IMG/VR virus record: IMGVR_UViG_3300004481_000333
Coordinates: 1 to 64,000 of that record
DNA from: a virus
DNA length: 64,000 nucleotides
Strand: one strand, 5' to 3'
Shown one piece after another: positions 2,029 to 24,125 of the stretch (position 1 is the stretch's first letter; each line of letters opens with the position of its first letter). The notes below the pieces were generated by a model. It saw only the letters and a list, made by a program, of their open reading frames with translations, did no database searches and was not told where the DNA came from. A program made the position numbers and the translations under genes.

Positions 2029-2354
2029 AAGCAACAGCTAAAAACACTAGCGGTATTGAACTGATCCGATCCGAGCGGGAGCGACAGATACTGGATGAGG
2101 GATACGACAAGTATCACGACGACTGCCACACGCGGGAAGAGATTGCGTGGGCAGCCGCGTGCTACGCGGCCCCGGAAGAAATCTGGCGACGTGATACTGC
2201 GTCGCGTGATTTCCTTCTTAAGGATCCGTGGCCGTTCGATTGGTACGACAAGCGCCCTGTAGATCCGACTCCGGAACAGCGCATCCGGTCCCTTGTGAAG
2301 GCGGGGGCCCTGTGCGCAGCCGAGATCGACCGCTTGCTGAGGAGGTCGCGATGA
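2025..2354 (+). CDS. conserved phage hypothetical protein
   Basis: ERERQI..EGY...HDD...AAACYA...WP...LVKAGAL.AAEIDRL pattern common in phages. Confidence 0.7.
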   Translation: MKATAKNTSGIELIRSERERQILDEGYDKYHDDCHTREEIAWAAACYAAPEEIWRRDTASRDFLLKDPWPFDWYDKRPVDPTPEQRIRSLVKAGALCAAEIDRLLRRSR

Positions 2355-2773
2355 TCCCAGACGAAGAAGAGCTTCCGGTAGGGATCGCGGGAGACCGGAT
2401 GGAGCGATCGCTTGCCGGATTCAAGCAGGCATGTGGCGTCTTGATAGCAGAGGAACAGGAAAGACCTCTCCCGAACAATGCCCTGATCGGGGTGTTGCGC
2501 GATGGTGTTCAACTGGCTCGCGAACTAGACGAGAGGGGGCCGATGATGCCATCTTTTGCAACCGAGATGCGCCTCATGACGCTGGCGCGCGACAAGTGCT
2601 TGGAGCAGATTCGACTCCTAGAACACAATCGCGACGAGGCTCGCCGCTGGAACGAGTCGCACATCAAGCGCCTCGAGGACGAGATCAAGCGGCTACGCTC
2701 CGAGCTCGAGGCAGCAAAGACGTGGCAACACGCTTACCAGAAGGGCGCCACCAAACGGAGGATCGTTGGCTGA
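2351..2773 (+). CDS. coiled-coil hypothetical protein
   Basis: GGAGG SD, ATGA coupling, heptad-rich C-terminus. Confidence 0.6.
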   Translation: MIPDEEELPVGIAGDRMERSLAGFKQACGVLIAEEQERPLPNNALIGVLRDGVQLARELDERGPMMPSFATEMRLMTLARDKCLEQIRLLEHNRDEARRWNESHIKRLEDEIKRLRSELEAAKTWQHAYQKGATKRRIVG

Positions 2774-3024
2774 TGGACTGGAAACCGTTGCTCCGGTGCG
2801 GGGAGTGTTCGTGCGCGGCTGGGCCGTGGCACGAGGGAACCGAGAAACCACCCGACGTCGCGGGAGTGCATCTGGTATACCTCGGAGAGGGTTGGTACAA
2901 AATTGTGCAATGGACCGGGTCGTTCTGGTTCGATGAATTCGACCCACATTTACGTCCATTACCAGACGGGATAGTCCTACAATGGGCTTCTGTTCATGTC
3001 CTGAATGATAGGATATCGCGATGA
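2773..3024 (+). CDS. hypothetical protein (DUF551-like)
   Basis: PWH...KPP...VHLVY...W....VLQWASV pattern. Confidence 0.5.
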   Translation: MDWKPLLRCGECSCAAGPWHEGTEKPPDVAGVHLVYLGEGWYKIVQWTGSFWFDEFDPHLRPLPDGIVLQWASVHVLNDRISR

Positions 3025-3356
3025 TGATCCGATCCAGGCCCGCGACCGACGCATACCGCAAAGGGTGGGAAGCTACCTTCGCCAAGGATGGTTGCGTAGG
3101 CCTCAACAAATATTGTCTCAGCTGGTGGGTACCCGTGGATCTGTACTACCAATTCAAGCGCAATTGGGACGATCCAGTGTTGATACTTGGGCAACGCGGG
3201 ACGGAACGGGGTTTGGATGCCTTCGAGGTCATTGTGGTAGTTCGGGCCGAGTCCGAAGAGAAGGCACGCCAAAAGATTTTGGATGCACATGGTATTCCCG
3301 TGGAACTCGAGTGGATAAAGCCGCGTTGGAATCCACAGAATCAAGCCAATGACTAA
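3021..3356 (+). CDS. hypothetical protein, paralog of 3563-3892
   Basis: shares SWW.P..LY and AESE..AR.KI..AH..PVELEW with the downstream gene. Confidence 0.65.
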   Translation: MMIRSRPATDAYRKGWEATFAKDGCVGLNKYCLSWWVPVDLYYQFKRNWDDPVLILGQRGTERGLDAFEVIVVVRAESEEKARQKILDAHGIPVELEWIKPRWNPQNQAND

Positions 3357-3405
3357 GACCGCCATCGCCTGGACCAACGCGCGACACCGTCACGAGGGCT
3401 CATGA
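3349..3405 (+). pseudogene. truncated 5' copy of the DUF5131 gene
   Basis: MTKTAIAWTN... versus MAKTTIAWTD... at 3892; stops after 18 aa. Confidence 0.6.
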
Positions 3406-3563
3406 GACCCGGAGTATTTGTTCACCACCGCTTGGGCTACGGGGCACCACGGATGCTGGTTGTGCGCGTCTTCGGTCCCAAAGCTGTGGATCCGCGCCTT
3501 GTCCTGTGCGTTTGGACTAGCGGCATCGGGTACTGGCTGCGCGCAAACTTGGAGCAATTCTGA
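3402..3563 (+). CDS. small protein, possibly YodC/DUF2158-like
   Basis: 53-aa ORF MRPGVFVHHRLGYGAPRMLV...VLCVW, coupled at both ends; read by hand. Confidence 0.5.
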   Translation: MRPGVFVHHRLGYGAPRMLVVRVFGPKAVDPRLVLCVWTSGIGYWLRANLEQF

Positions 3564-3892
3564 TGGTCAAGACATTCCAGCCATATTGGGTCAGCTGGTG
3601 GGAGCCGTGGGAGCTCTATTTTGCGTTTGAGTGGCACGGACCATGGTGGGTATCGGGAGAACGCGATGTGTCTACTAGCCTAAACCAAATCCTACCGGTG
3701 GACCTATCGATTTGCGCGGCCGTCATGGCCGAGTCGGAAGATCAGGCCCGATCAAAGATCACGAATGCGCATGACAATCCAGTGGAACTTGAGTGGCGGT
3801 TCGTGACCGCAAAGCCTGCGGATTGGTCTCCATTCAACGATCGCTTCACGCGCAGAGATTGGATGAACTGGCCGTGGCCAGTGGAGGAGTGA
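3563..3892 (+). CDS. hypothetical protein, paralog of 3021-3356
   Basis: 109-aa Trp-rich ORF, TGATG coupling. Confidence 0.7.
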   Translation: MVKTFQPYWVSWWEPWELYFAFEWHGPWWVSGERDVSTSLNQILPVDLSICAAVMAESEDQARSKITNAHDNPVELEWRFVTAKPADWSPFNDRFTRRDWMNWPWPVEE

Positions 3893-4737
3893 TGGCAAAG
3901 ACCACCATCGCCTGGACCGACTACAGCTGGCCCGTGATCAATGGGTGCCACAGGGTCAGCTTGGGGTGTTCGCAATGCTACGCCGAGCGTCTGACCGCTA
4001 CGCGGCTCCGGCACGTGCCGCGATACCAAGGTCTCGCGGAGTGGCGCAACGGGTACCCGCACTGGACGGGTGAGAGCAGACTGGACCGCGACGAGCTGTA
4101 CAAGCCGTTTCGCTGGAAGCGGCACAGACGTGTGTTCGTCTGCCAGATGGGTGACCTGTTCTACGAACGAAACACGGACGAACAGATTGTTGAGGTGTTC
4201 GGCGTCATGGCGGCATGTCAACAGCACCAGTTTCAGGTGCTGACGAAGCGGCCGGAACGTGCACTGGATGTGTTGACGACCACCCAATTCGCGGCGCAGG
4301 AAATCGACTTCGCTGACAACCTAGTTTGGGACAAACTCACGTGGGTTTGGCCCCTGCCAAACGTCCACATGCTGACGTCTGTCGAGCATCAGGCAACGCT
4401 GGAACCGCGCATGAAGGCACTGGTACGGCTCCCAGCGGTCATGCGGGGACTGAGCGTCGAGCCCATGCTGGGTCCGGTGGATCTTGAAGCGGTGTCTCCT
4501 CCCATGCTCGATCTCCTGGGTTGGATCATCATCGGGTGCGAGAGTGGTCCGGGGCGCCGGCCATGTCGGATCGAATGGGTAAAGGCGCTGGTCGAGCAAT
4601 GCAGGCGGCATCGGATTCCGTGCTTCGTCAAGCAGCTGGATTTGGACGGCCGTGTCTCGCATGACCCAGCCGAGTGGCCAAAGTGGGCCCGAGTGCGGGA
4701 GATGCCTAGACCGATCGAAGGGAGATGGAACCGATGA
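3892..4737 (+). CDS. DUF5131 (phage Gp37/Gp68) family protein
   Basis: TTIAWTD.SW..INGCHRVSLGCSQCYAE, VFVCQMGDLF, FQVLTKRP, LSVEPMLGPVDL, WIIIGCESG, FVKQL. Confidence 0.9.
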   Translation: MAKTTIAWTDYSWPVINGCHRVSLGCSQCYAERLTATRLRHVPRYQGLAEWRNGYPHWTGESRLDRDELYKPFRWKRHRRVFVCQMGDLFYERNTDEQIVEVFGVMAACQQHQFQVLTKRPERALDVLTTTQFAAQEIDFADNLVWDKLTWVWPLPNVHMLTSVEHQATLEPRMKALVRLPAVMRGLSVEPMLGPVDLEAVSPPMLDLLGWIIIGCESGPGRRPCRIEWVKALVEQCRRHRIPCFVKQLDLDGRVSHDPAEWPKWARVREMPRPIEGRWNR

Positions 4738-4964
4738 CCGGGAAGGCCCAGTCGGGATGGCAAAAGCGGACATACAGATCATGGTACTGGTTCGATGCGA
4801 AGACCGGCACGTGCCGAGGGATTGTTTCCTACGATCCGACATTGGCGGGGTTCGATCCTGCAAAACCGTGGTGGAAGGCATTGACCCCGGGATGCACGAC
4901 GTTCCACTCGAGCGAACAACAAGCGCTGGACGCGGCCACAGAAAGGCTGACGGAGAAATCGTGA
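4725..4964 (+). CDS. hypothetical protein
   Basis: 79-aa ORF coupled in operon. Confidence 0.55.
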   Translation: MEPMTGKAQSGWQKRTYRSWYWFDAKTGTCRGIVSYDPTLAGFDPAKPWWKALTPGCTTFHSSEQQALDAATERLTEKS

Positions 4965-5034
4965 GCGAAGGCACGATCCAGCAAGTCCTGACGGGACAGG
5001 CCACTTGGTGCCTAGTCCAGGGTAAGCGTTTCCA

Positions 5035-5613
5035 ATGATCCAAAACTCCCATATCACGCGCCACCTACTCAAGCTTCGCATCATCGCCCTAGACCCGGGA
5101 CTAGGTCAGGCTCGCCCCGGCTACGGCACGGGTGTCGTGATTCTGGAGTGCGGCAACGACGCGCCGCGGTGGGTTTGCCTGCACTCCGAGCTCCTGGAGA
5201 ACCGAACGGACCGCATGACCGACAGCGAGATCGCGTGGTACACTGCCGTCAGTATCAGCTGGATCGCGGCGACATGGTCGCCTCTGGACCTCGGAGTGCT
5301 TGAGACCGTGGAGTACCAGGGGGCCAAGCGGGCACAGCAGACCATCCGGCTCTCGCTCCTGGTGGGGGAAGTTCGGCACGCGCTGACGCTTGCTATCGGG
5401 GATCGTACCTGCATCGTGGAGCCTCGACGTACCCAGGTCATGAGGCACCTCGGAGTTCCGCGTGCCGACCAAGCGGAACGGTTCGTGCGCCGCCTAGTGA
5501 AGGGCGTGGGACCAAGCGAGCATGAGGCATCGGCAGCAGCGGCTGGCTTAGTTGGGTTCGAGATGTGGAGACGGCTGCAGGTCAAGGCAACCGCACGAAA
5601 GACGAAGACGTGA
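5035..5613 (+). CDS. RuvC-like Holliday junction resolvase
   Basis: RIIALDPG...GTGVV, GVLE, PRRTQV and HEASAAAAG RNase H-fold motifs. Confidence 0.7.
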   Translation: MIQNSHITRHLLKLRIIALDPGLGQARPGYGTGVVILECGNDAPRWVCLHSELLENRTDRMTDSEIAWYTAVSISWIAATWSPLDLGVLETVEYQGAKRAQQTIRLSLLVGEVRHALTLAIGDRTCIVEPRRTQVMRHLGVPRADQAERFVRRLVKGVGPSEHEASAAAAGLVGFEMWRRLQVKATARKTKT

Positions 5614-6158
5614 CAAGCGCAACTACCGAGACTCTCTACAGCCACGACGGCTCCCGTTGGGCAACGTTCGGTCGGGAGCTGAAGCCCGACGGATCCCGAA
5701 TGTATCGGTACGAGCTGACGATCATGTTACAGACGGAACTGTTCAACCAATCTCCCCATCTGGTGGCGTTCCTGATGTGCAATCCTTCCGTCGCGACGCA
5801 CGAGAAGAACGATCCCACCGTTGCGCGATGCGTCGACTTCGCAAATCGATGGGGATACTCGGGACTAGTGGTCCAGAATCTGGACGCCTACATCACGCCG
5901 TATCCGACCGAACTGGGACAGGTTCAGGACCCAGTGGGACCCGAGAATGATCGGTTCATTCAATCTCTGGCAGACCGCAAGATCGATGTCGTGTGCGCGT
6001 GGGGTGTGCAACCGCTCATCCTTCCACGATCCTACCAGGTTGCCAGAATGCTACAGCACACACGACTTTGGTGTCTCGGCACCACCGGCCGAGGTTATCC
6101 CAAGCATCCACTCTACCTAAAGCGCGATACCAAGCGTGTTCGATGGAGTCCACAATGA
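5610..6158 (+). CDS. DUF1643 family protein
   Basis: YRYEL, MCNPSVA...NDPTVARC, GPEND, VVCAWG, PKHPLY. Confidence 0.85.
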   Translation: MTSATTETLYSHDGSRWATFGRELKPDGSRMYRYELTIMLQTELFNQSPHLVAFLMCNPSVATHEKNDPTVARCVDFANRWGYSGLVVQNLDAYITPYPTELGQVQDPVGPENDRFIQSLADRKIDVVCAWGVQPLILPRSYQVARMLQHTRLWCLGTTGRGYPKHPLYLKRDTKRVRWSPQ

Positions 6159-6505
6159 AGCTAGTCTACGTCGCAGGGCCCTACAACGCCCCCACAGATT
6201 GGGAGCGCGAGAACAACATCTGGCACGCCCGTTCCGCGGGTGCTCAGGTGGTGATGCACGGCGCTTACCCAGTCATTCCCCACGCCAACACGGCGCACTT
6301 CGGCGGACTGGCGGACGAAGAGCTCTTTTACGCCGGATCCATGGCGCTTCTGGAGGCGTGCCACGGAATTCTGCTTCTCAACGGCTGGAATGTCAGCAAG
6401 GGGGCACAAAGCGAATTTGCGCGCGCAGTTGAGCTTGGACAGCTGGTGTTCCAAGAAGTACTACCATCCGATTGGTTGGCAATGAAGGAATGGGCGCAGT
6501 CATGA
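6155..6505 (+). CDS. DUF4406/nucleoside 2-deoxyribosyltransferase-like protein
   Basis: LVYVAGPY...PVIPH...LEACHGILLLNGWNVSKGAQSE. Confidence 0.8.
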   Translation: MKLVYVAGPYNAPTDWERENNIWHARSAGAQVVMHGAYPVIPHANTAHFGGLADEELFYAGSMALLEACHGILLLNGWNVSKGAQSEFARAVELGQLVFQEVLPSDWLAMKEWAQS

Positions 6506-6696
6506 ACGAAGACGACAAAACGATAAGCCAGATGCAGAAGCTATCGATTAGCAAGCTGTTTATGCCAGGCTATCTAGTGGCTGCGTCGGTCGAGCTTCAA
6601 AGGTCACGAGAGCTCATCGCGGTGTTGAAACGGTTCTGTGATACGGTCGAATGTCCCGACTATGTGCATTGCGCTTGGGAAGAGTTCGAAAAGTGA
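6502..6696 (+). CDS. hypothetical protein
   Basis: ATGA-coupled ORF. Confidence 0.5.
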   Translation: MNEDDKTISQMQKLSISKLFMPGYLVAASVELQRSRELIAVLKRFCDTVECPDYVHCAWEEFEK

Positions 6697-7325
6697 ACCA
6701 TCACCTTCACCGCTGGTTCTCCCAGGTCAGGGTCTTCCTGGACACCTTGCCCGAAGGCGCCACCACGACCGACGTCGCACGCGCGCTGGATCCGAACCCC
6801 GACACGTGGGCGTGCTCCCAGGCGCGTCTGTCGAACGCGAGCAAGGACGGGGATCTGTCGGTGCATGGAATTTCGCGCCTTCACTTCCGGTCCGACCACC
6901 CGCGCGGAACCTACGTCTACTACACCCGAGAGCACGCAGAACGGGTCGCATCATCGGTCCGGACGTGCCAAGCGTGTGGCATCATGCAACCGGTCTTGAC
7001 CTTTTCAGTCACGCACCGGGGCACTACCGAACTTAGCCAGGTCTGCAATGCCTGCCGGGACGCTGGCCACATGAAGACCAAGCGAGTGGTAGACGCGGAA
7101 CGAAAGCGAATGTGGCGTCTGATCCACCAATCCGAGAGGGCGAGGGGAACGGGTGCCAGAACGGGACAGGAGTACGAGACCCCTCGGCGCCGGGTCAAGG
7201 TCTGCAAGACCTGCTGGAACGCGCCATGGCGGCTCAGGGAGCCGTGCCCAACGTGTGGCGCCAAGCCACGACTCGAGGCGGTCGCGAAGAACTACGCCCC
7301 GACTGGGGTACAGTGGGACTTCTGA
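6693..7325 (+). CDS. Zn-finger protein
   Basis: four CxxC pairs (CQAC, CNAC, CKTC, CPTC). Confidence 0.6.
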   Translation: MNHHLHRWFSQVRVFLDTLPEGATTTDVARALDPNPDTWACSQARLSNASKDGDLSVHGISRLHFRSDHPRGTYVYYTREHAERVASSVRTCQACGIMQPVLTFSVTHRGTTELSQVCNACRDAGHMKTKRVVDAERKRMWRLIHQSERARGTGARTGQEYETPRRRVKVCKTCWNAPWRLREPCPTCGAKPRLEAVAKNYAPTGVQWDF

Positions 7326-7373
7326 AACCAAGGTCAATCCGATGATTGACCCCCCAAACGCTGAAAGGAAGTC

Positions 7374-7688
7374 ATGGCAAAAAAGCATGCTGACATGGAG
7401 CAAGGACGCGAGTGGATCCGAGGCGAGTCGAACTTCGGCCGGCGCCGGTGGACATTTCGCGATTGCGACGGGGAATACTGCTTCCTACAAGACTCTGGCG
7501 AGGTAGGTGTACCTCCTCGGTGTCGTCTAGGTCCGAACGAGGTTCGCCATCACCACGTAACCGGAGATCACCTTGCGTCGATCTACCTCGACCAGGAGCA
7601 GGCCCGGACGCTCGGGATGGCCCTGCTGCACTTTGCCGAGAAGGGCTACATGCCTGCCAAAGTCCGCAACCCACGAGGGTCCAGATAA
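7374..7688 (+). CDS. conserved phage hypothetical protein
   Basis: AAGGA SD; FRD.DG..CFLQDS...LG...LDQEQA...L.HFAEKG pattern. Confidence 0.65.
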   Translation: MAKKHADMEQGREWIRGESNFGRRRWTFRDCDGEYCFLQDSGEVGVPPRCRLGPNEVRHHHVTGDHLASIYLDQEQARTLGMALLHFAEKGYMPAKVRNPRGSR

Positions 7689-7712
7689 TCTCCAGAGCGA
7701 GGATATGGCGCC

Positions 7713-7946
7713 ATGATAAATCACCTCTACCCCACCTGGACCCGATCTGGCTGGGTCCGCAACCCCCGCACGGGGGAGTACCATCACCAGGAGTTCGGCG
7801 TCGTGTCGAAGGTGCTTTCCAGGTGGATGCTCGAGATCCCTACGGCCAACCGGGAGTCGCCCGAGAAGGCGACGCTGATTCGGAGAACCCGCTTTGACGC
7901 CATGAAGGCCGCTTCCGATCTGGCAAGAAGGAGTCAGAGCAAATGA
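7713..7946 (+). CDS. hypothetical protein
   Basis: GGAGG SD, ATG ORF. Confidence 0.55.
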   Translation: MINHLYPTWTRSGWVRNPRTGEYHHQEFGVVSKVLSRWMLEIPTANRESPEKATLIRRTRFDAMKAASDLARRSQSK

Positions 7947-8149
7947 CGCAACGACGGAAGACGTACACAATCCCCAAAACTCTCTGGGACGCGTGGGTGA
8001 AGGGGCGGAAAGTGTCACGTAAAAATCAGGCACTGATGTCCGAGATTGATGCCGCTCTGGACACACCCGGGACCCGCGTCCAGTTGACCATGTACGGACG
8101 GATCTTCCGCACGCTTGTGAGCGACGGGAAGGCCCTGGAGGAGAAATAG
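7943..8149 (+). CDS. hypothetical protein
   Basis: ATGA coupling, AGGAG SD. Confidence 0.55.
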   Translation: MTQRRKTYTIPKTLWDAWVKGRKVSRKNQALMSEIDAALDTPGTRVQLTMYGRIFRTLVSDGKALEEK

Positions 8150-16260: not shown

Positions 16261-17211
16261 ATGGCAACAATCGACCAAGTATCAGCGCTGATCTCGGCCC
16301 ACTGCCGCAGGGATGAGGACAGATTTCGGAGCACTGTCCAACAGATTAGGTCCAGCCATGCGTCGCGCAAAGAATGGAGCGCTGCGAGTGCGATCGAGCG
16401 GGCCTATTCGTTTGATACCATGGACACACAGAATCCAGTGTCCGTGCCTCACGAAGTCCGGGGGATGCTGGCCCTTCGGGAACGACGAGTGGTAGCCAGC
16501 GACATGGTGCTGGACAGGGAACTTGAGAACCAGTTCACCCAGATCGTGACGGAGCACAAGGAGAAAGCAAAGCTGCGAGAGCACGACCTGGAACCCATGC
16601 GGAGGGTCCTTATGGCGGGTCCTCCTGGGACTGGCAAGACCATGGCGGCCAGCAGACTTGCTGGCGAGCTCGGACTACCGCTCTATTTCACCAACCTGCA
16701 CAGCATAATCGGAAGTCTGCTAGGAGAGACTGCGGGCAGACTTGGTAAACTGTTCGAGTGGATCCGAACCGCGCAAGCTGTAGTGTTGTTCGATGAGTGT
16801 GACACGCTTGGCAGCAAGAGAGAACCTGGGTCGAGTAACGCACAGGGGGAGATGAACCGCGTCATGGCCAGCCTGTTGACCTTTCTGGAAAGCGATGTTG
16901 GAGACTGCGTGGTACTTTGCGCGACAAACATGCCTGAGGCGCTGGACCCGGCATTCGTGCGGAGGTTCGACGCTTACCTCGAGTTCAGAATGCCGACTTA
17001 CGAACAAGGCTTCCGGCTTATTCACAAAACGTTGGAGAAATTCGATTTCGAGCCCATCACATACGAGCTACCTGAGTTGAGCCACCATGATCTGGTAGAG
17101 GCGGCGCGGTGGGCCGCGAAGAGGGCGTTGTTGGCAGGGATGCCGGTTCTCTCGGACCATCTAAAGGAGGGGTTGATGCGACGCGAGAGACTGGGACGGA
17201 GGGAGCCATGA
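16261..17211 (+). CDS. AAA+ ATPase
   Basis: GPPGTGKT, VVLFDECD, ATN..LDPAFVRRFD. Confidence 0.9.
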   Translation: MATIDQVSALISAHCRRDEDRFRSTVQQIRSSHASRKEWSAASAIERAYSFDTMDTQNPVSVPHEVRGMLALRERRVVASDMVLDRELENQFTQIVTEHKEKAKLREHDLEPMRRVLMAGPPGTGKTMAASRLAGELGLPLYFTNLHSIIGSLLGETAGRLGKLFEWIRTAQAVVLFDECDTLGSKREPGSSNAQGEMNRVMASLLTFLESDVGDCVVLCATNMPEALDPAFVRRFDAYLEFRMPTYEQGFRLIHKTLEKFDFEPITYELPELSHHDLVEAARWAAKRALLAGMPVLSDHLKEGLMRRERLGRREP

Positions 17212-17873
17212 AACACCGCCCCATGATCTTCAGCGGCCAGAACCCCCTGCTGGTCCGATCTGGAAAGAAGACCAGGACGAGCCGCATGATGAAGCCTCAG
17301 CCCGGCGGATGGGAGAAGCATTGGGAGTGGAAAGGCCACAATCTGTGCTCACCAGCTGGGAAGGAGTGGCTTCTGGCGCTGGCGCCCCACGGACAGCCCG
17401 GGGATCTCCTTTGGGTCAAGGAGGAGTTCCAGCTGATGGACCTGGAGGACGGCAAGCAATGGACCAAGTCAAGATACTTGAACGACGCACGTGGCGAGGT
17501 GGAGGTTCTGTACAGAGCGGGTTGCCTCGATTGCGATGACGAGCGAGTAGGCACATGGAAGCCAGCTTTCTTGATGCCCCGCTGGGCCAGCCGAACTCAG
17601 CTGGAGATCACGGACGTTGACGTCCAGTGCATTCAGGATATCACGGAAGAAGACTGCTTGGCTGAAGGAATCATCAGGACCAAGTTCCCGTTCAGCGACC
17701 CCGGCAACGATTTCTGTTACACGATGGGGCCTTGGACTGTTGACGCTGCTCGATGGAGCCACTCAGCAAAGGCGTGCTTTGAAAACGCCTGGGAGGCGAT
17801 GCACGGAAAGGGGTCGTGGAACAAGTCGTGCTGGGTCTGGGTCTACCGTTTCCGTCGCGTGGAGGGGCCATGA
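17208..17873 (+). CDS. ASCH/PUA-like phage protein
   Basis: RPMIFS...SGKKTRTSR, GQPGDLLWVKE, WKPAFLMPRWASR.LEITDV...IQDITEED.LAEG, WVWVYRF. Confidence 0.8.
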   Translation: MKHRPMIFSGQNPLLVRSGKKTRTSRMMKPQPGGWEKHWEWKGHNLCSPAGKEWLLALAPHGQPGDLLWVKEEFQLMDLEDGKQWTKSRYLNDARGEVEVLYRAGCLDCDDERVGTWKPAFLMPRWASRTQLEITDVDVQCIQDITEEDCLAEGIIRTKFPFSDPGNDFCYTMGPWTVDAARWSHSAKACFENAWEAMHGKGSWNKSCWVWVYRFRRVEGP

Positions 17874-18331
17874 TTGCGCTTTCGATTCGCCGCCCGTGGC
17901 CATGGGCGATCCTGCATCTGCCACGCGAGATCGCGAAGGACATCGAGAACCGCGACTGGCCCACCAGTTTTCGCGGCAAGTTCTTGGTCCACGCTTCCAA
18001 GGGATGCACCAAGTGGGACTACACGACCGGTGCGATCTGCATTGAAGACGCAATTGAACAGCTGGTTCCTATGGAGACGGAGACTTGTACAACGCTTCAG
18101 GGGCTTGGATTCCAAGAGTTGAAAGACATGCCCGCTGGCGCGATCGTCGGATGGGCCGAGATCACGGATTGCGTTGAGACGTCGAATTCACCGTGGTTCA
18201 GTGGACGATACGGATTCGTGCTGGGACGTCGGGGAGTGCTGCAGCCCATCCCGTGCAAGGGACAACTTGGGTTCTTCCGCGTGCCGGAGGACGTGGCTCA
18301 AGCGGTTAGAGAGCAGGCCATCCGTGGATGA
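17870..18331 (+). CDS. ASCH domain protein
   Basis: ALSIRRPWPWAI...KDIENRDW...RGKFLVHASK...GAIVG...CKGQLGFF. Confidence 0.9.
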   Translation: MIALSIRRPWPWAILHLPREIAKDIENRDWPTSFRGKFLVHASKGCTKWDYTTGAICIEDAIEQLVPMETETCTTLQGLGFQELKDMPAGAIVGWAEITDCVETSNSPWFSGRYGFVLGRRGVLQPIPCKGQLGFFRVPEDVAQAVREQAIRG

Positions 18332-18692: not shown

Positions 18693-19499
18693 ATGTTCAG
18701 CGTGACAGAGAAGGCGTTGATCGAAGCAGTTCAAACGAGATTGCGAGAGCCAAATGACGACAAAGGAGCAGAGATGCCCAAGGACGAGAAAGTGAATCCA
18801 ACTACCGATACGGCGGCAACCACGTACAACGAACCACCACAGAATCTCGCTGCTGGACCATGGCGTGCATTCCCAGAGAATAAGCCGACGCTTGGTGGGC
18901 CAAAACTCGTGGCGGTGAGCCACGCAACGGCGTCCTCAGGGTTCAAGTTTTGGACCCTGAGAATGGCACGTTACGACAACATCGGAGAGGGGTGCCCACG
19001 ATGGTGGTGTGTAGTGACGGACATGCCGTTGAGTGTTTCTCACTACGCGGACTTGCGCGATCCAATAGTGTCCGACGCGCCTACTTCCGATCCGGATCTT
19101 CCCGCGATTCCGAGACTTGAGTGCCCATTGGAAGAGGCGTCTGTTGAGCCAGCGCTCGAGCCCAACCTCCACTGGTCGTTCAAGCGCACGCCGTGCGAGA
19201 CCGACCTGCGGAGAATCCTGCGGGAGTCCGAGGAGGCGGGGGCAAGGGCGATTGGGATTCGACTGTGCGGGCAGGCGATCGTGGGACTGAGAAAGAAGGC
19301 TCTGGAGGCAGCTGCGGGACTCAGCTTGATGAACTCCCTGGGTGTGATGGGCCAAAGAGGTTTACTGTCATGCGGCTCACTAGAATGGATGCTTATGTGG
19401 GTCTCGGGAGACCCCGCAGAGGCAGCCAAGGCGGCGTTGGCCGAACTGGACGCCTGGGCTGGCAAGCGGCACCGCACGACCGTGGCGGTGTTCAAATGA
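18693..19499 (+). CDS. hypothetical protein
   Basis: 268 aa, GGAGG SD. Confidence 0.6.
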   Translation: MFSVTEKALIEAVQTRLREPNDDKGAEMPKDEKVNPTTDTAATTYNEPPQNLAAGPWRAFPENKPTLGGPKLVAVSHATASSGFKFWTLRMARYDNIGEGCPRWWCVVTDMPLSVSHYADLRDPIVSDAPTSDPDLPAIPRLECPLEEASVEPALEPNLHWSFKRTPCETDLRRILRESEEAGARAIGIRLCGQAIVGLRKKALEAAAGLSLMNSLGVMGQRGLLSCGSLEWMLMWVSGDPAEAAKAALAELDAWAGKRHRTTVAVFK

Positions 19500-19630
19500 G
19501 CCTCTCGGACGAGAAACGGAGGTATCTTGAGAGCCTGTCGCCAACGCAGGGATGCTTCGAGATCCAACGATGGGCCCACGCCGGCTGCACGGGAGTCGGG
19601 CGCGGGAGTTCTGCAGGGCAAAAAAAGTAG

Positions 19631-19659
19631 TTGACAGCGTCCATCGTATGATGCATGAT
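19631..19659 (+). promoter_or_regulatory. sigma70-type promoter
   Basis: TTGACA-N17-CATGAT preceded by an A-tract (UP-like). Confidence 0.75.
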
Positions 19660-19686
19660 GCACCGTAGTCCAGGAAGGTAACTGCT

Positions 19687-19845
19687 ATGACCGATCAGGA
19701 CGCCAGAAGGCTAGCTGCTGAATCGCGGTGTGATCTTAGGACCGTGCGCTCCATGCTGGTCGACCCGGCAAGCGTGCGTCCGGTCAGCAGGACACGCATC
19801 GAGGAAGCAGCCAAGAGGTTGAAGATCAAACTTCCAAGAGCGTAG
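19687..19845 (+). CDS. small LacI-type HTH regulator (52 aa)
   Basis: MTDQDARRLAAESRCDLRTVRSMLVDPASVRPVSRTRIEEAAKRL resembles the LacI headpiece; AGGAAGG SD; below the ORF-track cutoff. Confidence 0.7.
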   Translation: MTDQDARRLAAESRCDLRTVRSMLVDPASVRPVSRTRIEEAAKRLKIKLPRA

Positions 19846-19848
19846 CAA

Positions 19849-21660
19849 ATGGTCAAAGCAAAAACAGTTCAGCGTTCCGGCCAGGGTCGTCGCAGGAAGG
19901 GCGACCTCCACTCGCCCAAAGGCGAGGCCAAAGTGCACTCAGCCAATACTGAGCTCAAGCGCTCAGTACCTCTGCATCCCGGCGACCTTGGCTCGAGCGC
20001 TGAACCGAAGAGACCGAAGTCTCTCGGCTCAAAAGAGTTGGACGAGGCGCGCGATTGGCTGATCGCGGAGCTCTCTTCCATGGGGGTAGCGAAGCCGGTA
20101 GTGTTCCGAGGCCGGAAGGGACACGGAGTAGAGGTCAAGGACGGACGTCGAAAGTTGGGTGGAATTGACAACGCCGACTTGATTACGCGCAACGTTCATG
20201 CCGTAGAGGACTTGTTTCGGCTGCATGGGTCGGTTACGATAGAAATCGACCCGAAGGCAGCGCACGCGCACAAAGACATCCTGTTCGGAGTGTGTAGAGC
20301 CCTCGTTGCGGGCCAGCGGGCAGTGATGCGGGCTCTGTACCGTGGAGAGCACGACACTCCGGCGGCACGGGACCCCGACTTCGTCGCCTATTGCGCACTA
20401 AGCAAGAACAAGGTCGACCAACTGATCGCCAAAGGTGGTACCCTCCTGTCGAACAGCTACGCCTATCCGATTCTGCGGTACGCAGCATCGCAATGGCTCG
20501 CCAATTCAAAGACAGAAGTAGAGCGCAATCTCAGCGTTGCCAGCAACCAGATAGGGTCCGCGTCGAAGAATGCTGAGCGAAAGTGGCGCGATTGGATGGG
20601 GCACCAGGACGAGCAGTCTCTTCCGAGATTCACCACGCCATCATGCGAGGTCGACGCCGACCAGTACAAGCTAACGATGAAGGGTCGAGAGCTGTCGGTA
20701 GCTCTCAAGATTCAGGGAGCGGACGGCGGAAGAATACCTGTGATCGATCTCGATGCCTACGCTCGCGGTGGATCTGGATGGGCGGACCTGCGGCGCATCC
20801 TCTCGGGGGAATGGGAGCGCCGATCTGCACGGTTGGTGTGGGACGATGCCCGTAGGAGATGGCTCCTGAAAATCTCGGTCATGAAACCCAGACCGGAGTT
20901 GAAGCATGGGGTAGGTGCCATGGTCGTGTGTCCGGGCGTGGACTCACTTGTGCGCGTATGGGGAAGCAACGGATGGCGCGGTCCGGCCGATGACACCGCC
21001 AGCATCATCGCGCGCAAACTCAGGATCGATTCCAGGAAGTCACAACTCGGGCAGCACAAGGATTTCCAGGGTCATGGGGCACGCGGACATGGCCGCGGTA
21101 GGTTCACCAAGCTTCTGCGGAGATTTGGTGATGCGGAAGCGAGATTCGACAAAACGCATATCCAGCAAGGCGCGGCCCGCGTGGTACAACTGGCGCTCGG
21201 ACAACGTCTTGGAAAGAATGGGTGGTCCGAGCGAGAAGGTTCGGTGGGTGAGGTTCTGGTCAACAGTTTTGGATCATTTTGCCCGACGCATCCGGACCGT
21301 CGCATCGAGCGAGTGCTCCGACGATTCCCCATCTGTGCCCAACGGGACGCGATTTGCTGGGCTCTACGCAAGGCTGGAATCCCTCATCGGGTTGTCAAGA
21401 GCGCGAATCTTTGCCCCGCGTGCGGAGAGGCTAAGGTTGTCCACTACAGCGGCATGGATTGGTGCTGCCCCAAGTGCCACCTGCGCGCGCCCCGAGACCT
21501 ATGGACCGCATGGCAGACGTTCATTGCCGGAGGTGATAGCCAACACTACGACCTTTCCGAAGTCGGAAAGGAGTTCCGAGAAGCGGCAGAATATGCGGAA
21601 TCGATCCGCAGGAAGGCAGAACAGAATGGATCCGAAGAAACTGAAGAAGCTGCTCAATGA
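19849..21660 (+). CDS. TnpB/Cas12f-like RNA-guided protein, predicted RuvC-inactive
   Basis: WLLKIS..KP then RuvC-I AMVVCPG (Asp->Cys); GHGARGHGRGR Cas12f-like segment; RuvC-II VLVNSFG (Glu->Asn); KAGIP.RVV; CPAC/CPKC Zn ribbon; RuvC-III RDL; adjacent mini-array. True start may lie downstream of 19849. Confidence 0.8.
   Translation: MVKAKTVQRSGQGRRRKGDLHSPKGEAKVHSANTELKRSVPLHPGDLGSSAEPKRPKSLGSKELDEARDWLIAELSSMGVAKPVVFRGRKGHGVEVKDGRRKLGGIDNADLITRNVHAVEDLFRLHGSVTIEIDPKAAHAHKDILFGVCRALVAGQRAVMRALYRGEHDTPAARDPDFVAYCALSKNKVDQLIAKGGTLLSNSYAYPILRYAASQWLANSKTEVERNLSVASNQIGSASKNAERKWRDWMGHQDEQSLPRFTTPSCEVDADQYKLTMKGRELSVALKIQGADGGRIPVIDLDAYARGGSGWADLRRILSGEWERRSARLVWDDARRRWLLKISVMKPRPELKHGVGAMVVCPGVDSLVRVWGSNGWRGPADDTASIIARKLRIDSRKSQLGQHKDFQGHGARGHGRGRFTKLLRRFGDAEARFDKTHIQQGAARVVQLALGQRLGKNGWSEREGSVGEVLVNSFGSFCPTHPDRRIERVLRRFPICAQRDAICWALRKAGIPHRVVKSANLCPACGEAKVVHYSGMDWCCPKCHLRAPRDLWTAWQTFIAGGDSQHYDLSEVGKEFREAAEYAESIRRKAEQNGSEETEEAAQ
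19867..20027 (+). ncRNA. putative tracrRNA-like scaffold overlapping the 5' end of the Cas12f-like ORF
   Basis: CTCCACT (19906-19912) and CCTCTGCATCC (19969-19979) are complementary to two parts of the array repeat; long stem 19867-19892/19980-20005 and terminal hairpin 20005-20027. Confidence 0.65.
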
Positions 21661-22363
21661 GGCTGGAATCTGCTTCACCCAGTGGAACGACTGGGAACTA
21701 GTACAGCGCGAACTCTCGAAGCTCAGGGTTGCGCGCGACAAGGCTGAAGCACACTACTGCCTGTTTCTGTGTGGCGTCGAGGCCTGCTCGGCGGAGTGGC
21801 GTAGCGGGCTCGATTCGAAGGAACCGCAGACATTCGACCATTGGCTGCGCAAGCAGTCTCTGCATGATGACCCGGCGCGCTACCGGGCTATGCTGATCGC
21901 TCTCGAAACCAAGGGGCTTGAGTGGGTGCAACGAGTCGGACCGATTGCGATCGCGACGGTCGTAAAGAATCTTCCATCAGAACTTCGGGACGAAGGATTC
22001 AGGCGTCTTGCGGACAAGAGAGCTGACGTCGGGCAACCGGTATCGTCTAAGATCGGTCCGGCGGTTGTGGCGGCCGTCAAAGCGGCGCACCAGGACATCT
22101 GCCCTCCCATGCCGAGACATCCGAAGCTCGTGAAGTTGGGTGCCAAGCTGCAGACGTCGAGGGGTCAAGTGAAGTCGCTGGAGGATGAGCTCAAGGAAGC
22201 TAGGTCTACCATTGCGGAGCGAGACCGGACGATCGAACGGCTCATGGCTGAGAATTCCGAGCTTCGCGAGCGGCTCGGTGCTGCGCAAACCGCGCTAGGC
22301 GCTCGCACGCAGAAACCTCGAAAAACAGTGGGGACGCAGCAACCGGCGATGCCGGCCGAGTAG
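21626..22363 (+). CDS. coiled-coil accessory protein coupled to the Cas12f-like gene
   Basis: 245 aa from ATG 21626, overlaps the upstream stop; C-terminal heptads VKSLEDELKEARSTIAERDRTIERLMAENSELRERL. Confidence 0.7.
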   Translation: MDPKKLKKLLNEAGICFTQWNDWELVQRELSKLRVARDKAEAHYCLFLCGVEACSAEWRSGLDSKEPQTFDHWLRKQSLHDDPARYRAMLIALETKGLEWVQRVGPIAIATVVKNLPSELRDEGFRRLADKRADVGQPVSSKIGPAVVAAVKAAHQDICPPMPRHPKLVKLGAKLQTSRGQVKSLEDELKEARSTIAERDRTIERLMAENSELRERLGAAQTALGARTQKPRKTVGTQQPAMPAE

Positions 22364-22439
22364 AAGCAATGGAGATGGCGAAGACCCGCTCGCAAAGTAC
22401 AGCGCAAGGTAGCAGGATCGTGGAGGTCCTAGCTGGCGG

Positions 22440-22646
22440 GTCAGGACAGCTGAAAGGATGCGGAGGAAGTGGAGCATGACCATCACGCACGCACGGGCCC
22501 GGGACATTCTGGTCGCTGTGGGCAACAGGATGCAGAGGAAGTGGAGCCGATCGAGCGCGGTCCTGCGGGTCACTTCACCTCGGCGTCGCTGTGGGCAACA
22601 GGATGCAGAGGAAGTGGAGCTAAGGCCTGGCAGGCAACCAAAGAAC
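22440..22646 (+). CRISPR. mini CRISPR array: 3 repeat units, 36-bp repeat
   Basis: GTCGCTGTGGGCAACAGGATGCAGAGGAAGTGGAGC identical at 22512-22547 and 22585-22620; 5'-degenerate copy at 22440-22475; unique spacers of 36 and 37 bp plus a third segment after repeat 3. Confidence 0.85.
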
Positions 22647-22675
22647 GGCCCCCATGGAACAACGCCACGGGGGCC
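22647..22675 (+). terminator. hairpin closing the array
   Basis: GGCCCCCATGG...CCACGGGGGCC stem; no U-tract. Confidence 0.45.
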
Positions 22676-22904
22676 AGGCATCATTACCTCGATCTGAGGC
22701 TCCCTTCGGCTCTCGCCGACGTGCTTGGGATTAGGTAGGAGAAGACTAGCACGCCAGCGAGGTCGTTGACCAGCCGGCGCATTCGTGCCAGAACGAATAA
22801 GCCCCGCCGACCGAGAATCGACGGGGCTCTGGAAGGATCGAGACCTGCTACATCAGGAGTAGCAGGATGGCAGTCTTCGGTCAACCAGGTCCACTGGGGG
22901 CAGC

Positions 22905-24125
22905 GTGAGTCGGTGGTGCAGAGCCGAAAAGGCCGAGCGTTCCCGGGTGAGGGAGCGGGGTCCACGGCAGCCTGAACATCCACCAGACTTCCCCGAAACC
23001 GAGCGTTTCGCTCTCGAGCGGGTCTTCAGCTGGCTTTGCTGGGTCTCGTCGTCGCCTGCGGGATCGATGCTGGGTCGTCAAGAGCTTTTCGGGCTGCCGA
23101 TCCGAGAATGCCAGCGGTGTAGGGGCACGGGGCTGGTTCAGCGCCAGCCACGCCGGGAGCCCCGGTTCGCGGAGTTCGCGATCCTACTGGGCTGCTTGGA
23201 GGAGGAGGCGAGGCAGCGGTGGGAGGCGCTTCAGGCCCAGATCGAGCCAGAACTGGGGGACAAGCAATGCCCGAGATGTCGAGGAAGCGGAAGGACGCAG
23301 GCCAGGATCGGGGCGAAGCCCATCGGTACCTGGTATCAATCTCCGTCGATTGAGTGCCCCGCAGGCGTCCGGAACTGCTCGGGTCAGGCCCCATGGTCAG
23401 AAGAGGTCGTGTGCGCATCGGGGCATCCAGACGCTCGCGACTGGTATGAGCCCAACCCTGAGAGCTATGCCTACATTGGGGCACAACTGTCCAGGTTGCT
23501 GCTGGTAGAGCGCCGGCACGGAGCTAGGTCCGTGAGTGTGCTGCAGATCTGGTACGGCCCGGACGCGCGACGGTATGACCCCGAGGAGGTCCCGATCCCG
23601 ACCGACGATGCTTTGCGCGTGCTTGAGCTTGCGCATCAAGAGGGCGCGTTGGTGCTGGACGTCGAGACCGAAGAGGACGTTCCGGCTGAGATCGCGAAGC
23701 GACTCAAGTCCTACAACGAGGAGTGGCGGGACCGGCACGAGGCGGAACGTAATGGTAGCGCGATTGCGCCGTACTCCATGGGCGCGTTTGAGATCTCGGC
23801 TCTGCTGCGTCCCAAGCGGATCCAGCGATCCGAAGAGCTGGGGCGTCAGGCACAGCTGGTCCAGATCTGGCCCGCGACCGCGACGGGGCGCAAGGCGCTT
23901 CGTGGCATGTCGGACATCGAGAATTTGCGTTCCACCATTGAGACCAAGCGGGGTGGACACCGAAAGGTCGCTCAGCTGGACCGGGAGGCGGAGAAGCTGT
24001 TGAGTCGAGCGCAGCGGTATTGGTGCGCGACCAAGCGGGTATCACCGACTCTCATCGTCGTGGCGGACTGGAGGGCAACCGCCGAGGTTCTGGTGAAGGA
24101 AATCCTTGCCCGGAGGGCGGCGTGA
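22905..24125 (+). CDS. Zn-finger protein, possible antiterminator/late regulator
   Basis: two DnaJ/Q-type motifs, CQRCRGTG and CPRCRGSG; position near the end of the early/middle operon. Confidence 0.55.
   Translation: MSRWCRAEKAERSRVRERGPRQPEHPPDFPETERFALERVFSWLCWVSSSPAGSMLGRQELFGLPIRECQRCRGTGLVQRQPRREPRFAEFAILLGCLEEEARQRWEALQAQIEPELGDKQCPRCRGSGRTQARIGAKPIGTWYQSPSIECPAGVRNCSGQAPWSEEVVCASGHPDARDWYEPNPESYAYIGAQLSRLLLVERRHGARSVSVLQIWYGPDARRYDPEEVPIPTDDALRVLELAHQEGALVLDVETEEDVPAEIAKRLKSYNEEWRDRHEAERNGSAIAPYSMGAFEISALLRPKRIQRSEELGRQAQLVQIWPATATGRKALRGMSDIENLRSTIETKRGGHRKVAQLDREAEKLLSRAQRYWCATKRVSPTLIVVADWRATAEVLVKEILARRAA

Follow-up and report, generated by a model that had tools for sequence, protein, structure and literature searches.

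A Predicted Leucine-Zipper Protein Encoded Between a Probably Nuclease-Dead Cas12f-Like Gene and a Repeat Array in a Phage Genome

Introduction

The dead Cas12 protein Cas12k works with Tn7-like partners, and type V-K loci carry the MerR-type regulator CvkR; Cas12m and TldR are not known to act with a partner. Cas12m (type V-M, PMC10442227) and TldR (10.1101/2023.11.30.569447) have been described as RNA-guided DNA binders that silence without cutting. In the dCas12f-sigma-E systems of Bacteroidota (Hoffmann, Wiegand et al., PMC13472631), dead Cas12f works through a bound partner, resulting in RNA-guided transcription; the same work states that rpoE-dcas12f loci also encode helix-turn-helix (HTH) proteins of unexplained role, and it mentions a separate cluster of putative dCas12f next to CRISPR arrays. 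Moreover, type V-U24 was reported to combine a noncanonical RuvC-I with an associated HTH protein of unknown function, and rearranged active sites were found to occur in TnpB relatives (Altae-Tran et al. 2023, PMC10691335). The present analysis deals with a small gene found between a Cas12f-like effector gene and a CRISPR array in the first 64 kb (positions 1 to 64,000, hereafter the window) of the virus record IMGVR_UViG_3300004481_000333, a record of 85,413 bp with a completeness of 78% by CheckV. The product of this gene (P0001) is called the partner. A preliminary description of the window had proposed that the partner is a dedicated cofactor that could supply the output of a non-cleaving effector.

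Conservation of the Partner Gene Beside the Effector and the Array

A partner homolog, a directly adjacent Cas12f-like gene and a CRISPR array were found together in all seven loci in which the context could be read, namely the window, L001, L002, L004, L013, L016 and L017; from the 27 remote members of the partner family described below, these loci take in P0010 (L004) and a relative of P0032 (L013). Because L001/L002 and L016/L017 are near-identical pairs, the seven loci amount to about five lineages. The trio was kept down to 21-28% identity of the partner and 27-33% identity of the effector, and also through an inversion of gene order, and in every lineage seen the partner gene overlapped the effector gene or lay within ~50 nt of it. 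The partner family profile matched exactly one open reading frame (ORF) per locus, with E values of 2e-64 to 7.5e-37. The preliminary description had counted homologs occurring mostly without Cas12f-like neighbours as an argument against its proposal; this was not borne out, such a neighbour being present in each of the seven readable loci. It is very likely that the partner is a dedicated component of a phage dead-Cas12f module.

L001 and L002 are IMG/VR phages of ~106 kb that encode a 575-aa effector, with 56% identity to the window effector, and a 243-aa partner, whose gene also shows a 35-nt overlap and is followed by an array reaching the contig end, the 36-nt repeat of which is related to that of the window. 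In the metagenome contig L004, the gene of partner P0010 overlaps by 4 nt the end of a 629-aa effector (33% identity, E 1e-95) and is followed by ~29 repeats. The effector-side search of IMG/VR returned four loci, which were L001, L002, L016 and L017, the last two with a 657-aa effector, a 245-aa partner overlapping the effector end by 47-83 nt, depending on the start chosen, and arrays of at least 20 and of 13+8 repeats, respectively. L013 corresponds to phage Rctr197k (GenBank KX853510.1), in which the order is partner (Rctr197k_118, annotated as a 205-aa hypothetical protein), effector (Rctr197k_117, 6630-8033, annotated as a 467-aa 'transposase-like protein') and an annotated CRISPR repeat region. 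This locus was found by tblastn of the remote member P0032, right beside the earlier match of the window effector, and Rctr197k_118 matched P0001 with an E value of 9e-5 and the partner family profile with an E value of 6.5e-37. Two further co-located pairs are probably represented by P0004/P0007, both with a longest contig of 62,528, and by P0005/P0008, both with one of 2,636. The genes flanking the trio varied between lineages, with an M50 peptidase upstream in L004 and unrelated ORFs in L001.

Relatives of P0011, P0010, alignment A5 and the L013 partner were absent from the viral contig scans, as were relatives of alignment A5 from genome contigs, and GenBank phages gave no match when queried by tblastn with P0001, P0017 and P0025. 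L005 and L006 were considered as partner loci and left out of all counts, their weak partial matches lying inside a 377-aa ORF beside a helicase and being probably unrelated.

In the ORF list of the window, the partner ORF sits within the open frame 20915-22363, in a frame other than that of the effector ORF, with which it shares 35 nt (21626-21660). ATG 21626 was taken as the partner start because all four close homologs begin at that Met. In this way, both the translation and the homolog starts agree with the preliminary description, which had placed the partner start within the last 35 nt of the effector gene; its placing of the partner between the Cas12f-like gene and the array was equally confirmed, the array starting 76 nt past the partner. 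An AGGAAGG sequence at 21610-21616, 9 nt upstream of the ATG, can be read as a putative ribosome-binding site. The four close homologs, obtained by a word-based search, showed 52-72% identity, were all 242-243 aa long and were all metagenomic. A full profile search of 1.84 billion representatives retrieved 29 proteins at E <= 0.001. Apart from the close homolog P0003 and a 4,333-aa coiled-coil false positive, which was excluded, these were 27 remote homologs of 172-254 aa (E 5.5e-13 to 8.7e-4), with matches over the N-terminal domain (N-domain) and a portion of the zipper. The 4 close and 27 remote homologs argue for a real and conserved gene, beyond a chance ORF.

Table 1. Features of the module and its surroundings in the window
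Feature	Position	Strand	Description
Sigma-70-like promoter candidate ahead of the module	19631-19659	+	TTGACA, 17 nt, CATGAT; 10/12 consensus matches
Cas12f-like effector	19849-21660	+	603 aa; degenerate RuvC triad, probably nuclease-dead
Partner gene	21626-22363	+	245 aa (starts MDPKK); all-alpha N-domain 1-154, Pro-rich basic linker, leucine zipper 166-228, disordered tail
Leader	22364-22439	+	76 nt; box GACCCGCTCGC at 22383-22393; imperfect inverted copy at 22432-22442 (2 mismatches), touching repeat 1
Mini CRISPR array	22440-22620	+	Three 36-nt repeats at 22440, 22512 and 22585; spacers of 36 and 37 nt
Third spacer-like segment after the last repeat	up to ~22656	+	

The Cas12f-Like Effector and Its RuvC Triad

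A profile built from the 603-aa protein and three relatives matched AsCas12f (PDB 7wju, 8dzj) with an E value of 1.6e-20 over 327 profile positions, in a match that took in WED, REC, RuvC and the zinc finger; other Cas12f structures also matched, and the Pfam Cas12f1-like TNB match of the effector was below threshold (E 0.0024). A Cas12f-like core was present in the window effector and an intact D-E-D triad was absent, since the RuvC-II Glu was replaced by Asn (VLVNSF), with the RuvC-I Asp (GVD) and the RuvC-III Asp (PRD) in place. At least one triad substitution was observed in all seven aligned effectors (alignments of six and five members, plus AsCas12f), and the residue at the RuvC-II Glu position was Asn, Ser, Ala, Ala or Asn in five of six aligned effectors. 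The branch of the window kept the RuvC-I Asp (GVD or GLD) and had the RuvC-II Glu replaced by Asn, Ser or Ala, while P0009 and the effector of L013 (Rctr197k) had the RuvC-I Asp replaced by Thr or Lys and the RuvC-II Glu kept; in the L004 effector (2204-4093), the RuvC-III Asp was changed to Glu in addition to the RuvC-II change. Because different triad residues were lost in different branches, it can be argued that cutting is not under selection in this family, and the window effector is probably nuclease-dead, judging from its residues. A G-x-GA(R/K)GHG motif was invariant across the effectors, and an insertion (LGKNGW..) preceded RuvC-II in those other than P0009 and Rctr197k.

The 5′ end of the effector ORF also contains a 16-nt stretch (19964-19979) with 88% complementarity to the repeat (22528-22543 and 22601-22616), which is a possible anti-repeat.

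Structure and Family of the Partner

The AlphaFold2 model of the whole partner had a predicted local distance difference test (pLDDT) score of 79.5 and showed eight short helices, which extend as far as residue 154, then a linker rich in Pro and finally a single helix over residues 166-228, while the N-domain modelled alone, with a 32-sequence alignment, reached a pLDDT of 94.2 and a predicted template modelling score (pTM) of 0.83. The heptads of the zipper were regular, with LLVLIINLL at the a positions, including one Asn, and LSLARLLAR at the d positions, so that L, I, V or M occupied 12 of 18 positions. An Asn at an a position is typical of parallel dimeric zippers, such as that of GCN4. 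A helical N-terminal domain followed by a long C-terminal coiled coil, as had been noticed in the preliminary description, was thus recovered in both the models and the heptad register. Across the family, the linker, zipper and tail together were basic, with a median net charge of +6, and R34, W58, F70, Y86 and G105 were near-invariant.

Concerning curated families, P0001 gave only coiled-coil-type matches in Pfam and PHROGs, and none of their families fits it. No sigma family (sigma-70 region 2/4 or extracytoplasmic function, ECF) was matched in Pfam by P0001 at E <= 1, and the sole structural trace of a sigma factor was a SigC fragment at rank 43 (VIA Z 4.3). Pfam bZIP_1 matched six of the 32 family members, with a best E value of 1.9e-5, P0001 itself not being among them. 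Phrog_3671, matched by eight of the 32 members, was rejected as the partner family, the match lying on the zipper in the two members inspected. A PDB sequence search with the partner family profile yielded only coiled coils, at E >= 0.0086, and coiled coils were also all that the VIA comparison of the whole partner model gave; a second VIA comparison reached a best Z of 5.6, and the BFVD structure search gave nothing at E <= 0.001.

A faint resemblance to phage DUF3102 proteins was indicated by two look-alike methods that are independent of each other. Among the 30 matches listed in the Atlas feature search, four were DUF3102 clusters (score 0.92), and in the BFVD Foldseek search such proteins stood at ranks 3, 22, 25 and 45, with TM scores of 0.36-0.50 and E values of 0.3-2.8. 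In Pfam, DUF3102 (PF11300) was absent from the matches of P0001 at E <= 1 and from the 25 most frequent of the 52 families that the 32 members matched. To our knowledge, no function has been assigned to DUF3102.

Boxes in the Leader

Between the partner gene and the array, the leader carries a box together with an imperfect inverted copy of it (Table 1). Boxes similar to GACCCGCTCGC recurred in the leaders of L001, L004, L016 and L017, forming a perfect inverted pair in that of L001, and copies of the CCNCTCGC type were found between the partner (or the effector) and the array. When the window 11-mer was searched for at up to one mismatch, L004 contained two copies versus 0.06 expected, at least two copies being reached in none of 200 shuffles. 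One of the two lies in the leader and the other inside a spacer (5784-5794, 1 mismatch), which may be a coincidence or a hint of self-related targeting. At the same mismatch level, all three copies in L016 fell within the ~260-nt leader, as did three of the four in L017 within the leader of that locus. Moreover, one and the same central position differs in both L004 arms, such that an RNA stem would have a U-U mismatch there, and this non-compensating difference mildly favours protein half-sites on DNA over a hairpin.

The CRISPR Arrays and Their Spacers

Two of the three repeats of the window array are identical, and the first shows 69% identity to them; in the relatives, the repeats finish alike at the 3′ end (..TGGAGC) and the arrays are larger. 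The three spacer segments of the window had no match elsewhere in the 85-kb genome, and an exact match to the first 26 nt of spacer 1 was present in neither viral nor genome contigs. Likewise, nothing convincing was found in the module loci studied for the 39 spacer segments of the window, L001, L002 and L004, the best match being of 17 nt, and blastn with the arrays of the window and L004 matched no GenBank phage.

A comparison between the arrays of L001 (10830-11074) and L002 (10830-11226), which belong to near-identical 106-kb phages, revealed one extra leader-proximal spacer in L002, whose last spacer is duplicated. This suggests ongoing spacer gain, and it could also be an assembly effect, because both contigs end inside the array.

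Other observations concern the repeats and leaders of the larger arrays. L017 has two adjoining arrays (6321-7222 and 7255-7787) whose repeats differ in their 5′ halves and share the 3′ end (..TGTATGGG..TTGGAG), which would fit a single trans-activating CRISPR RNA (tracrRNA) serving both. In L004, a solitary repeat copy (4792-4823) directly follows the partner stop codon, and the next ~250 nt (4824-5077) share blocks, such as AACC.AGGTGGTTTG.ATCACCT, with the leaders of L016 (4592-4852) and L017 (6067-6325); this stretch may be a tracrRNA gene.

Proposed Role of the Partner and Alternatives

The reading we favour, while judging it a little short of an even chance, is that the partner serves as a dedicated accessory protein in an RNA-guided DNA-binding module that derives from CRISPR and is carried by phages, and that this protein is dimeric and probably nucleic-acid-binding. 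In this proposal, the partner would be made together with the effector by translational coupling and would form a parallel homodimer through its zipper. The dimer would bind nucleic acid, the most concrete candidate site being a pair or triplet of leader boxes, from which it might control the array, either in the production of CRISPR RNA (crRNA) or in the function of the leader, and where it may tether or organise the effector. The specific mechanism of a dimer that reads the leader boxes is proposed about as tentatively.

Several observations weigh against this proposal. No DNA-binding family or fold is established for the partner. No HTH family was found in Pfam for P0001 at E <= 1, nor among the 25 commonest families of the 32 members; Foldseek against the PDB gave nothing at E <= 0.001 with the whole model or the N-domain; and VIA with the N-domain gave a best Z of 6.6 for AAA+ lid-type bundles and 5.3 for the ParB DNA-binding domain, which is the common range for helical models. 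Besides, the N-domain was near neutral across the family, with a median pI of 6.35. Concerning the boxes, the two copies in the window are not above the chance level of 1.07 expected in 64 kb, it being their location that matters. The degenerate pattern ACCCKCTCGY had three matches in L004, all in the 300-nt leader, versus 0.04 expected, a figure that is biased, since the pattern was composed after both leaders had been seen, the shuffle test of the 11-mer in L004 being the only one free of this bias. L013 shares only CCGCTCGCAA and two CACCGCTCGC copies, a weak resemblance, and a 10-mer such as the shared one appeared somewhere in the locus in 23 of 200 shuffles. Further segments are common to the L004, L016 and L017 leaders, where a tracrRNA may be encoded, so that the box could also be an RNA element. 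Moreover, a plain regulator of the locus would need no reading frames overlapping those of the effector, and the binding of the partner to the box, to the effector or to itself is a prediction.

An effector-bound output subunit was ranked second after the box-binding zipper dimer, and the two are mutually compatible. As a stoichiometric subunit of the effector complex, which we consider possible and rather doubtful, the partner would bind the dead Cas12f-like protein through its N-domain or zipper and supply the output at the targets; the dimer would couple two effectors or bridge DNA, leading to a stronger roadblock, to silencing or to the recruitment of a host factor, such as RNA polymerase (RNAP) or the replisome. 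Coupled and near-equimolar synthesis of the two proteins is predicted from their overlapping frames, which share 35 nt both in the window and in L001, 4 nt in the case of L004 and, for L016 and L017, 47-83 nt; their adjacency survives the inverted order in L013, and an effector without the full triad would need an output other than cutting. In addition, arrays of 13-29 spacers and the extra spacer of L002 resemble a many-target interference system, not the regulator of one gene, and dCas12f acting through bound sigma-E is a precedent in the available part of PMC13472631. On the other hand, Pfam revealed no enzymatic, sigma-like or RNAP-binding domain, nor another domain with a known output function, in P0001 and the 32 members; proteins of 446-2000 aa included no fusion of effector and partner, which is weak evidence; and the spacer searches yielded no target from which an output could be deduced. 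Complex prediction with the effector (alignment A2) and the partner (A1) scored 0.00 in two runs without controls and counts neither for nor against binding. Of the cofactor claimed in the preliminary description, the dedicated nature was strongly supported by the seven of seven loci, whereas the supply of the effector's output stays a conjecture, with no such domain found and a box-reading dimer being an equally good reading. An extended form, in which the zipper dimer docks on target-bound dead Cas12f and turns guide-directed binding into an effect on the DNA of the host or of rival phages, for instance by controlling transcription, blocking replication or bridging DNA, with a fold that has no described relatives, is unlikely.

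The boxes abut or lie near the first repeat, as would suit a dimer acting as a leader or adaptation factor that marks the leader-repeat junction for integration by host Cas1-Cas2 in trans, a role that IHF has at the leaders of some type I systems. The long arrays, the leader-proximal difference between the near-identical phages G001 and G002, and the interval between partner and array, which has no ORF of at least 80 aa in L004 or at least 100 aa in L001, speak for this idea; it is nevertheless improbable, as the spacer difference may stem from contigs ending within the array and the array of the window has only three repeats. Even less probable is a generic small phage regulator or structural helper without function in the module, linked to it merely by shared phage ancestry. 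The helical domain plus zipper of the wider family (27 remote members) is a common phage pattern, the context was read for very few of these members, and the BFVD look-alikes are ordinary uncharacterised phage proteins, several of them labelled DUF3102. Nevertheless, such a passenger would hardly account for a trio that persists while its flanking genes change, and, in G001 and G002, the homolog of the gene that follows the module in the window (a 406-aa protein) is ~34-36 kb distant from the module. The kept adjacency under the inverted order of L013 and the low identities at which both proteins remain together count against it as well. The accessory protein acting through the leader boxes remains the reading ranked first.

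Other Features Around the Module

The promoter candidate ahead of the module (Table 1) was the sole promoter-like site in 19400-23000, with 0.8 expected in shuffles, which makes it weak when taken alone. Immediately upstream of the effector, a 52-aa ORF occupies 19687-19845; it was rejected as a conserved part of the module, since neither L001 nor L004 has a counterpart ahead of the effector; there, ~500 nt and ~320 nt, respectively, look non-coding. Further upstream, the window encodes an AAA ATPase (PF00004, E 4.8e-28; phrog_3757) at 16261-17211 and a phrog_3193 protein at 17816-18331, which are ordinary phage genes. Downstream, the 406-aa protein (22905-24125) presented CxxCxGxG zinc-finger motifs, weak Q-like antiterminator matches (phrog_6060, E 1.1e-4) and a faint ECF-sigma match (E 0.15); its gene was rejected as a member of the module on account of its distant position in G001 and G002. 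Just past the array, minus-strand terminator-like hairpins with T-runs were observed at 22646-22676 and 22799-22829, which might end a convergent transcript. No RNA dataset was listed as containing the module, and one DNA run was listed, with a share of 0.08.

Comparison with Known Systems

Across the literature on dead or phage Cas12f, DUF3102 and Rctr197k, in the portions available, the partner was not described; one sentence possibly matches it, that on the V-U24 'HTH protein', and the supplements of PMC10691335 and PMC13472631 may bear on this point. The module resembles the Cas12k/CvkR arrangement in that a dead Cas12 would depend on, or be regulated by, dedicated neighbours; unlike it, the module lacks transposition genes, and the partner belongs neither to MerR nor to another DNA-binding family that could be recognised. 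Like Cas12m and TldR, the effector is compact, derives from TnpB or Cas12, carries a non-canonical triad and is expected to work through binding, whereas here a second protein is conserved beside it in every locus seen.

Type V-U24, which could be compared only by its description in the available part of PMC10691335, is similar to the L013/P0009 branch, where the RuvC-I Asp is replaced by Lys or Thr and a small partner is conserved, and V-U24 may be that very branch of the present effector family. The branch of the window differs from V-U24 as so described, since its RuvC-I Asp is retained and the residue lost is the RuvC-II Glu, and an HTH could not be demonstrated in the partner.

In common with the dCas12f-sigma-E systems, a RuvC-inactivated Cas12f derivative is genetically coupled to a small dedicated partner. 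Unlike in those systems, the partner has no sigma-70 or ECF domain (Pfam, E <= 1), and the module occurs in phages with true CRISPR arrays of up to ~29 repeats. The effector also keeps the zinc finger and the RuvC-III region, whereas the dCas12f-sigma-E effectors are C-terminally truncated according to the available part of PMC13472631.

If both proteins cooperate, they would make up an RNA-guided DNA-binding system that is compact, consists of two components and originates from viruses and, should the partner provide the output half, a natural phage device akin to CRISPR interference or CRISPR activation with dozens of guides. This raises the question of what use phages make of dozens of non-cutting guides, for which one protein, one effector and one short leader box offer an experimental handle. 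Dead derivatives of Cas12 and TnpB act as RNA-guided repressors, as for TldR and Cas12m, or as activators, as for dCas12f with sigma-E, and to these is added a phage branch that keeps real arrays and, in every locus seen, a zipper protein of no known family.

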